From Candidatus Heimdallarchaeota archaeon (GTDB lineage: Archaea > Asgardarchaeota > Heimdallarchaeia > Heimdallarchaeales > Heimdallarchaeaceae): a stretch of DNA of 64,000 bases. Below are positions 27,426-27,692 of this stretch, piece after piece. The position numbers were made by a program, and so were the translations under genes. The notes under the pieces were generated by a model. It was not told the origin of the DNA. It saw only the letters and a list, made by a program, of their open reading frames with translations, and searched no databases. The stretch is from the NCBI GenBank assembly GCA_018238545.1, contig JABCTC010000017.1, positions 8,836 to 72,835 of the forward strand, given 5' to 3'. Positions within the stretch are counted from its first letter, which is position 1. Every line of letters begins with the position of its first letter.

Positions 27426-27692
27426 GTTGCAATTGATGAATCAGGGAGAGAGTAAATGCAACAAAGTAGAAGAAGCTCTAGATATGATTAAAGAAGCTAT
27501 AGTTGCAATTGATGAATCAGGGAGAGAGTAAATGCAACAACGATTACTCTTATGATGTATATTTAGATGAAAATTATCTGTTGCAATTGATGAATCAGGG
27601 AGAGAGTAAATGCAACACTGTAACCATTTCTGAAAAGTGTACTTATTCTATTATCGTTGCAATTGATGAATCAGGGAGAGAGTAAATGCAAC
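27426..27692. CRISPR. CRISPR mini-array: 4 identical 37-bp repeats, 3 spacers (39, 41, 39 bp); no cas genes in the window
   Basis: GTTGCAATTGATGAATCAGGGAGAGAGTAAATGCAAC at 27426, 27502, 27580 and 27656; unique spacers; terminal GTTGCA/TGCAAC symmetry. Confidence 0.95.

Follow-up and report, generated by a model that had tools for sequence, protein, structure and literature searches.

The closest described systems to the locus reported here are the arrays of the Saccharolobus portogloboviruses SPV1 and SPV2, in which short cas-less arrays with one or two spacers and host-like repeats and leaders occupy equivalent positions in related elements, differ in their spacers, and target relatives with exact matches while avoiding self (PMC6858448). 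The Chiyouvirus mini-arrays of Bathyarchaeia combine four repeats with three spacers and belong to an element family with two repeat types, of which one resembles host repeats and the other has no host array to match; the filamentous virus that carries them is complete, encodes a Cas2 homologue and has spacers against itself (PMC10541130). Known mini-arrays have repeats identical to those of the host, and single repeat units of phages are described as RNA anti-CRISPRs (Racr) (PMC11656645). In the Heimdallarchaeaceae, whose CRISPR loci are mobile and variable, the virus HeimV1, host arrays and the orphan array C4 of Ca. Heimdallarchaeum have been described, and no element-borne mini-array (PMC8813620). 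In our literature search, we found no report of an earlier Asgard example of such an array.

Here, we analysed a CRISPR mini-array in a stretch of 64,000 nucleotides (the window) of contig JABCTC010000017.1 from a Candidatus Heimdallarchaeota archaeon. As in SPV1 and SPV2, the array is short and cas-less, related elements carry arrays with different spacers at equivalent positions, and the spacer evidence points to relatives and not to the element itself. In contrast to SPV, the elements studied here have two to five spacers, repeats sharing 17–22 of 37 positions with cas-linked repeats, no host leader and one imperfect target match, and the array in the window is carried by an integrated element with no virion genes that could be recognised. 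The number of repeats and spacers and the occurrence of two repeat types recall the Chiyouviruses, from which the element differs by having neither a cas gene nor a self-match. Solitary degenerate I-B-like repeats in homologous elements are similar to the Racr units, whereas the locus in the window is a full multi-spacer array. Finally, the element shares the host family with HeimV1 and a wHTH protein family with HeimV1-like viruses, one of whose genes is matched by a spacer of the element, but it is about half the size of HeimV1 and encodes a serine instead of a tyrosine recombinase. The class of mechanism is known from SPV1/SPV2 and Chiyouvirus, and the activity of the locus described here is putative.

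Architecture and orientation of the array

The four repeats are identical and the three spacers unique and of similar length (Table 1), which corresponds to a CRISPR array as generally delimited (identical direct repeats of 23–47 bp, unique spacers of similar length) and confirms what a first-pass annotation of the sequence had proposed. Its description of the array as cas-less was likewise borne out, as neither cas nor virion genes were recognised among the element proteins scanned. The same annotation had stated that a degenerate terminal copy was missing, which proved incorrect: a truncated remnant matching the full terminal copy of two homologous arrays is present, set off from repeat 4 by approximately 190 bp that represent a viral gene-junction relic.

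The annotation had further considered the orientation ambiguous and a unit of 38 bp possible. We assign the array to the plus strand with a 37-bp unit, since the element repeats align without gaps with the 37-nt repeats of the G029 type III-A locus and of the G024 and G016 loci, since element spacers of 37–41 nt resemble those of host 37-nt arrays (mean 39–40.5), unlike those of 29/30-nt arrays (mean 36.5), and since a bias towards A or T at the first spacer base is common to element arrays and host 37-nt arrays but not to the 29/30-nt ones. The leader on the left and the canonical class 1 handle at the end of one homologue's repeat (the G016 variant) point in the same direction. The minus-strand orientation was rejected because the terminal copy lies on the right and the gap-free match to cas-linked repeats runs in the plus direction, and the 38-bp unit because the first spacer base, mostly A or T, varies across homologous element arrays and host arrays. 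The host assembly is metagenome-derived (3.63 Mb, 92% complete, 4% estimated contamination) and contains no second CRISPR array and no further repeat copy with up to ten mismatches.

Table 1 Features of the array and its carrier element. Positions refer to the window; a dot indicates that no strand is assigned.
Feature	Position	Strand	Remarks
Integrated mobile element carrying the array	14443..29901 (approximate ends)	.	~15.5 kb
Serine recombinase (resolvase family)	20108..20857	-	
Conserved non-coding segments	26597-26778, 27079-27267 (within 26597..27267)	.	in elements with and without arrays
Leader-side region	27300..27425	+	without host-leader motifs; two palindromic motifs kept in homologous elements
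Repeat 1, leader-proximal	27426..27462	+	37 bp
Spacer 1	27463..27501	+	39 bp
Repeat 2	27502..27538	+	
Spacer 2	27539..27579	+	41 bp
Repeat 3	27580..27616	+	
Spacer 3	27617..27655	+	39 bp
Repeat 4	27656..27692	+	
Relic of virus-type gene junction	27716..27896	+	end of ~300-aa gene, start of ~520-aa gene
Degenerate terminal repeat, truncated	27890..27917 (approximate ends)	+	matches full terminal copy of two homologous arrays
Cys-rich micro-gene	28007..28144	-	shortened by a stop where homologues have Trp
wHTH-core-coiled coil-wHTH protein, 439 aa	28145..29464	-	family also present in HeimV1-like viruses

Lineage of the repeat

In the alignment of element and host 37-nt repeats, the 5' and 3' positions are invariant, and by sequence the window repeat is a member of the 37-nt class 1 repeat lineage of the host family. 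It has the conserved ends and the spacers of approximately 39–40 nt that characterise the type III-linked 37-nt family, but not the internal hairpin, which is predicted before the 8-nt handle in host repeats and absent from element repeats. The best identity to any cas-linked repeat found was only 22/37. A copy beside a cas operon of the host genome, which the first-pass annotation had named as the sign of a borrowed system, was not detected, and no identical or near-identical repeat was found next to a cas operon in 399 Asgard genomes, 185,579 species genomes or the JGI metagenomes either. Throughout these collections, the subfamily of the window repeat was found in three elements only. Exact and degenerate repeat patterns, searched in IMG/VR, the JGI metagenomes and the 185,579 genomes, returned only two congeneric elements and otherwise single matches in coding DNA. 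As metagenome assemblies often lose arrays, the cognate locus may be unsampled. Cas6 of P. furiosus reads the first ten repeat bases and tolerates changes in the repeat middle (PMC5965381), which by analogy makes processing of window-type repeats plausible.

The carrier element

In the congener G002, collinearity with the window extends as far as position 14442 and resumes at position 30022, with only about 750 bp between the two flanks. This corresponds to an empty site and places the array within an insert (Table 1) that codes for the serine recombinase, an ATPase with wHTH domains, small RHH/wHTH regulators and the 439-aa protein. The viral full-length homologue of the latter (E 2e-80) adjoins the integrase of a contig of 30–40 kb, whose ParB-like protein, integrase, two proteins of about 500 aa and single very large protein have homologues in the G029 provirus. 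The gene junction of which a relic of 180 bp follows the array is intact in L122 and in contig C2 of the host assembly (G000), and its ~520-aa gene is intact also in the related element L182. Based on the viral homologue and the relic junction, the element is, at the level of sequence, a relative or derivative of the HeimV1-like virus family. With no recognisable virion genes, it would be a defective provirus, a satellite or a plasmid-like HeimV1 relative.

The insertion site (14382-14442 and 29902-29926; L211) is a hot spot, in which G016 holds a different remnant of 2.4 kb with fragments of the element's cargo genes. Inside the element, a 188-bp duplication (22327-22514 versus 25433-25620, 80% identical) covers a small gene.

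Of 23 congeners, 5 have homologues of the 439-aa protein with 68–71% identity, and these occupy several distinct sites. In L194, a HeimV1-like ENA contig of 29.6 kb, the wHTH family of the element stands in for the first HeimV1 gene, and L182 displays the reverse swap, with the C-terminal half shared. In the core of the protein, Asn, Asp, Tyr, Lys, Arg and Glu positions are invariant among distant homologues, including the Tyr-x-Lys and Arg-x-Glu residues, an arrangement reminiscent of the catalytic signature of Rep_trans rolling-circle initiators, but PF02486 gives no hit. The protein is not a Cas protein and is probably a viral Rep-like replication initiator. No Cas fold or family match was obtained for it, and its C-terminal wHTH matches Csa3 weakly (E 2e-7), in the HTH part only. 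The predicted structure has a mean pLDDT of 61 with a poorly modelled core, and a single-sequence model of the core was unusable (pLDDT 38). Fold searches against PDB, VIA and viral structures yielded wHTH matches only; as the core was modelled at low confidence, this is no evidence that its fold is new. A PDB profile match to 2LVS was discarded, as it stemmed from the HTH of distant homologues and disappeared with a profile of close homologues. An ESM Atlas search gave no usable match, and no relatives were found in IMG/VR.

Leader side and neighbouring non-coding DNA

Motifs common to four host leaders are absent from the element leaders. The two palindromic motifs of the leader-side region (27350-27379 and 27403-27420) are conserved in homologous elements, and the conserved non-coding segments to their left are, judging by sequence, a possible origin or control region. 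The palindrome at 27350-27379 matches (31/36) positions 810-839 of C15, another mobile-element contig of the host assembly, where a palindrome lies within the reading frame for a BRO-N anti-repressor; the common palindrome may be an operator or an old spacer. The motif at 27403-27420 recurs in many element copies just before repeats or other motifs (L014:14768, L015:14493, L182:3259-4795) and is possibly a recombinase or regulator site. Perfect 12-bp palindromes at 26473-26484 and 27948-27959 flank the array region, and several occur in the array-free element L178.

An Rfam search returned nothing over threshold. The first-pass annotation had pointed to a nearby anti-repeat as a reason to keep an RNA module open. 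Of the two such matches, one of 10 nt at 28138 overlaps the translation start of the micro-gene and is common by chance (24 of 200 shuffles), while one of 12 nt at 28955 overlaps the wHTH coding sequence and is rarer (1 of 200). As neither is conserved in two homologous arrays, a tracrRNA-like anti-repeat was rejected.

Arrays in homologous elements

Three related elements bear arrays, two with the window's repeat family and one with a type I-B-like repeat. In G021, the 37-nt family is represented by a six-repeat array and a mini-array, and a further mini-array is built from a 29-nt repeat that resembles the type I-B repeat of the host family. G016 has three repeats of a third variant with a canonical handle at the end, followed by a degenerate copy, and L181 has three I-B-like repeats. 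The I-B-like repeats of G012, G004 and L182 are solitary and degenerate, and neither array nor repeat is present in L177, L178, L179 or the viral contig. None of the window spacers was found in the arrays of G021, G016 and L181. This patchy presence and the unshared spacers suggest that the arrays are optional cargo with turnover, independent of the wHTH protein. Within each element the repeats are homogeneous, while repeat variant and spacers are element-specific, which suggests that the repeats were duplicated once the elements had diverged.

In G021, approximately 30 nt that follow an I-B-like repeat are identical to a site upstream of the element's own wHTH gene (the two copies being L015:12431-12460 and L015:15442-15471), and may possibly be a self-regulatory guide or a repeated operator. 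Related palindromes of the same element (L015:15190-15236, 15505-15542 and 16965-17000) are found immediately ahead of the six-repeat array and also, as a spacer, in each of the two repeat classes.

Spacer targets

The comparison of spacers that the first-pass annotation had suggested was successful for spacer 2 only. This spacer matches contig C23 of the same assembly at 35 of 41 positions, with the first 17 nt perfect, compared to a best score of 30 among 120 null queries, and it also matches G010 (32/41). The target on C23 is a 768-aa fragment homologous to the 1822-aa protein of the HeimV1-like provirus in G029; paralogues are encoded on C67, C2 and C128 and in G010. The target gene is not present in the element itself, and no relative of it was found in IMG/VR. 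The targeted family and the element have the wHTH protein family and the relic gene junction in common. The six mismatches to C23 suggest that the true protospacer belongs to a related virus, and C23, a contig of 2.3 kb, may be co-binned rather than integrated. As spacer 2 corresponds to the sense strand of the gene for the large protein, a type III complex could not be guided by it to cleave the transcript; this strand suits a DNA-targeting complex or unselected acquisition. Antisense-like spacers prevail at about 2:1 in host 37-nt arrays and make up 7 of 10 in the element arrays.

Two spacers from cas-linked 37-nt arrays of relatives match C67 (35/41 and 35/40), a member of the HeimV1-like family. 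The G029 provirus starts beside tRNA-Gly(CCC), has an integrase at its end and is matched by host spacers; we infer that it is HeimV1-like, in agreement with HeimV1 as described previously (PMC8813620).

No convincing target was found for spacers 1 and 3. The best match of spacer 1 (33/39, contig C281 of G021) lies in a host-type gene of a congener and is followed by a tail of 30–32/39 matches, and that of spacer 3 (86% over 35 nt, G040) also has a host-type context; both were set aside as belonging to the tail expected over 82 genomes. Phage and plasmid collections returned chance-level spacer matches only, and no spacer matched the element itself (best score 24). Targeting of related elements instead of self is thus seen for one spacer in three.

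Cas machinery within reach of the element

In the assembly, we found no Cas6, Cas3 or Cas10, and Cas1 is present as a 107-aa fragment only. Contig C75 (L184:11234-14352) carries an array-less type I-B Cas7–Cas5 module with a Cas8-sized upstream gene and without cas3 and cas6; it ends at a shift in GC content from 0.31 to 0.40, which marks an insertion or a chimeric join. Contig C67 (L174:4503-7864), the HeimV1-related virus-like contig matched by host arrays of relatives, has an array-less type IV-B module (csf1, small subunit, csf2, csf3 and a cysH-like gene). On contig C38 (15896-18837), two genes for proteins of about 490 aa are present without cas genes, while their homologues, which are unannotated, adjoin cas loci in G029, G026, G024 and G012. 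TnpB-like matches number 36 in the assembly, with no TnpB/Cas12f match inside the window. Cas-bearing members of the genus include G016, with a host-type 37-nt array and Cas1, and G012, with a type I-B locus. Because the CRISPR loci of the family are mobile and variable (PMC8813620), an element moving among strains would meet Cas systems.

Discussion

We consider it probable that the cas-less mini-array yields guides in trans against competitor viruses and is possibly dormant in this strain. The array would be an accessory cargo of an integrative HeimV1-related element of the Heimdallarchaeaceae and would be transcribed from left to right. A host or co-resident Cas6, recognising the conserved 5' end of the repeat irrespective of its variable middle, would cut 8 nt before each repeat end. 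A type I-B or III-A complex provided in trans would take up the guides, which would then act on rival viruses of the HeimV1-like family. Spacers would be gained through Cas1–Cas2 in trans or through recombination. Since the processing enzyme was not found in the assembly, the array may lie dormant until the element reaches a host with Cas proteins. This reading corresponds in part to an earlier hypothesis of borrowed class 1 Cas proteins: the viral match of spacer 2, the homologous arrays and the kinship of the repeat speak for it, whereas the matching cas-linked repeat and Cas6 were not found. Among the traits of SPV-type mini-arrays, a cas-less mobile carrier, targeting of a related element by one of three spacers and spacer turnover are present, but a host-identical repeat and a host-like leader are not.

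The array could instead be an inert relic that was once captured or used, has since drifted and gives no guides now. Decay is visible nearby in the truncated micro-gene, in the relic junction that splits off the terminal repeat and in the absence of virion genes, and the missing Cas6 and the loss of hairpin and host leader also fit; against this, the four repeats are perfectly identical, and the homogeneous, element-specific repeats and spacers speak for duplication after divergence, so that we regard a relic as unlikely. It is distinctly unlikely that the diverged repeats serve mainly as decoy or regulatory RNAs, mimicking crRNAs to titrate or redirect host Cas in the manner of RNA anti-CRISPRs, with targeting as a secondary role. 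The solitary I-B-like repeats of G012, G004 and L182 and the stretch in G021 identical to the site upstream of its own wHTH gene would agree with such a role, but the window spacers are unique, of normal length and separated by perfect repeats, and convincing matches are limited to one virus gene, with none to the element or to a host gene. Very unlikely, in our judgement, is a repeat lineage that serves an array-less effector, namely the virus-borne type IV-B module, the orphan I-B Cascade or an unsampled TnpB/Cas12f-like protein. Confinement of the repeat subfamily to elements and the array-less modules and TnpB-like matches of the assembly would suit this explanation, as would the near-palindromic ends of the window repeat, which may recall Cas12f repeats. 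However, neither module contains Cas6, spacer 2 is directed at the same virus family that carries the IV-B module, close homologues of the C75 Cas7 are missing from the other array-bearing genomes, the element has no RuvC gene and no conserved anti-repeat, and the G016 repeat variant has a canonical class 1 end.

The first-pass annotation had also proposed that the array forms a dedicated RNA–protein module with the Cys micro-protein and the wHTH protein, and had suggested asking whether homologues of the latter are repeatedly array-adjacent. Several are not. In several copies, the wHTH gene does have an array or a solitary repeat downstream of it, and the Csa3 score of its C-terminal wHTH could be read in favour of a module, but the closest homologue (L177, 85%) as well as those in L178 and L179 (71% and 67%) are array-free, no array occurs within 10 kb of the full-length viral homologue, and near-identical wHTH proteins adjoin two unrelated repeat classes, so that repeat class varies independently of the protein. 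With the premature stop in the micro-gene and the missing Cas match added, such a module is extremely improbable. An assembly artefact, in which a piece of a host array was mis-joined into the contig, has next to no probability: the assembly is metagenome-derived with some estimated contamination, but the same flanking segments surround related arrays in two independent assemblies, and there is no host array with the window repeat to be mis-joined.

The reading that we prefer, guides supplied in trans against competitor viruses, would extend CRISPR conflict between mobile elements to the Heimdallarchaeia, close relatives of eukaryotes. It may also be speculated, although we consider this unlikely, that a private CRISPR repeat lineage is still gaining spacers without host leader or hairpin, that one element family is armed for two host systems with its 37-nt and 29-nt repeats, and that the repeat either evades control by the host or supplies an array-less effector (type IV-B or orphan Cascade) elsewhere. 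The three natural repeat variants, in which the ends are kept and the middle is scrambled, constitute a test of what Asgard Cas6 and Cas1–Cas2 read. Contrary to the rule for mini-arrays, the locus does not copy the repeat of its host, and it belongs to an undescribed element family linked to the HeimV1-like viruses.
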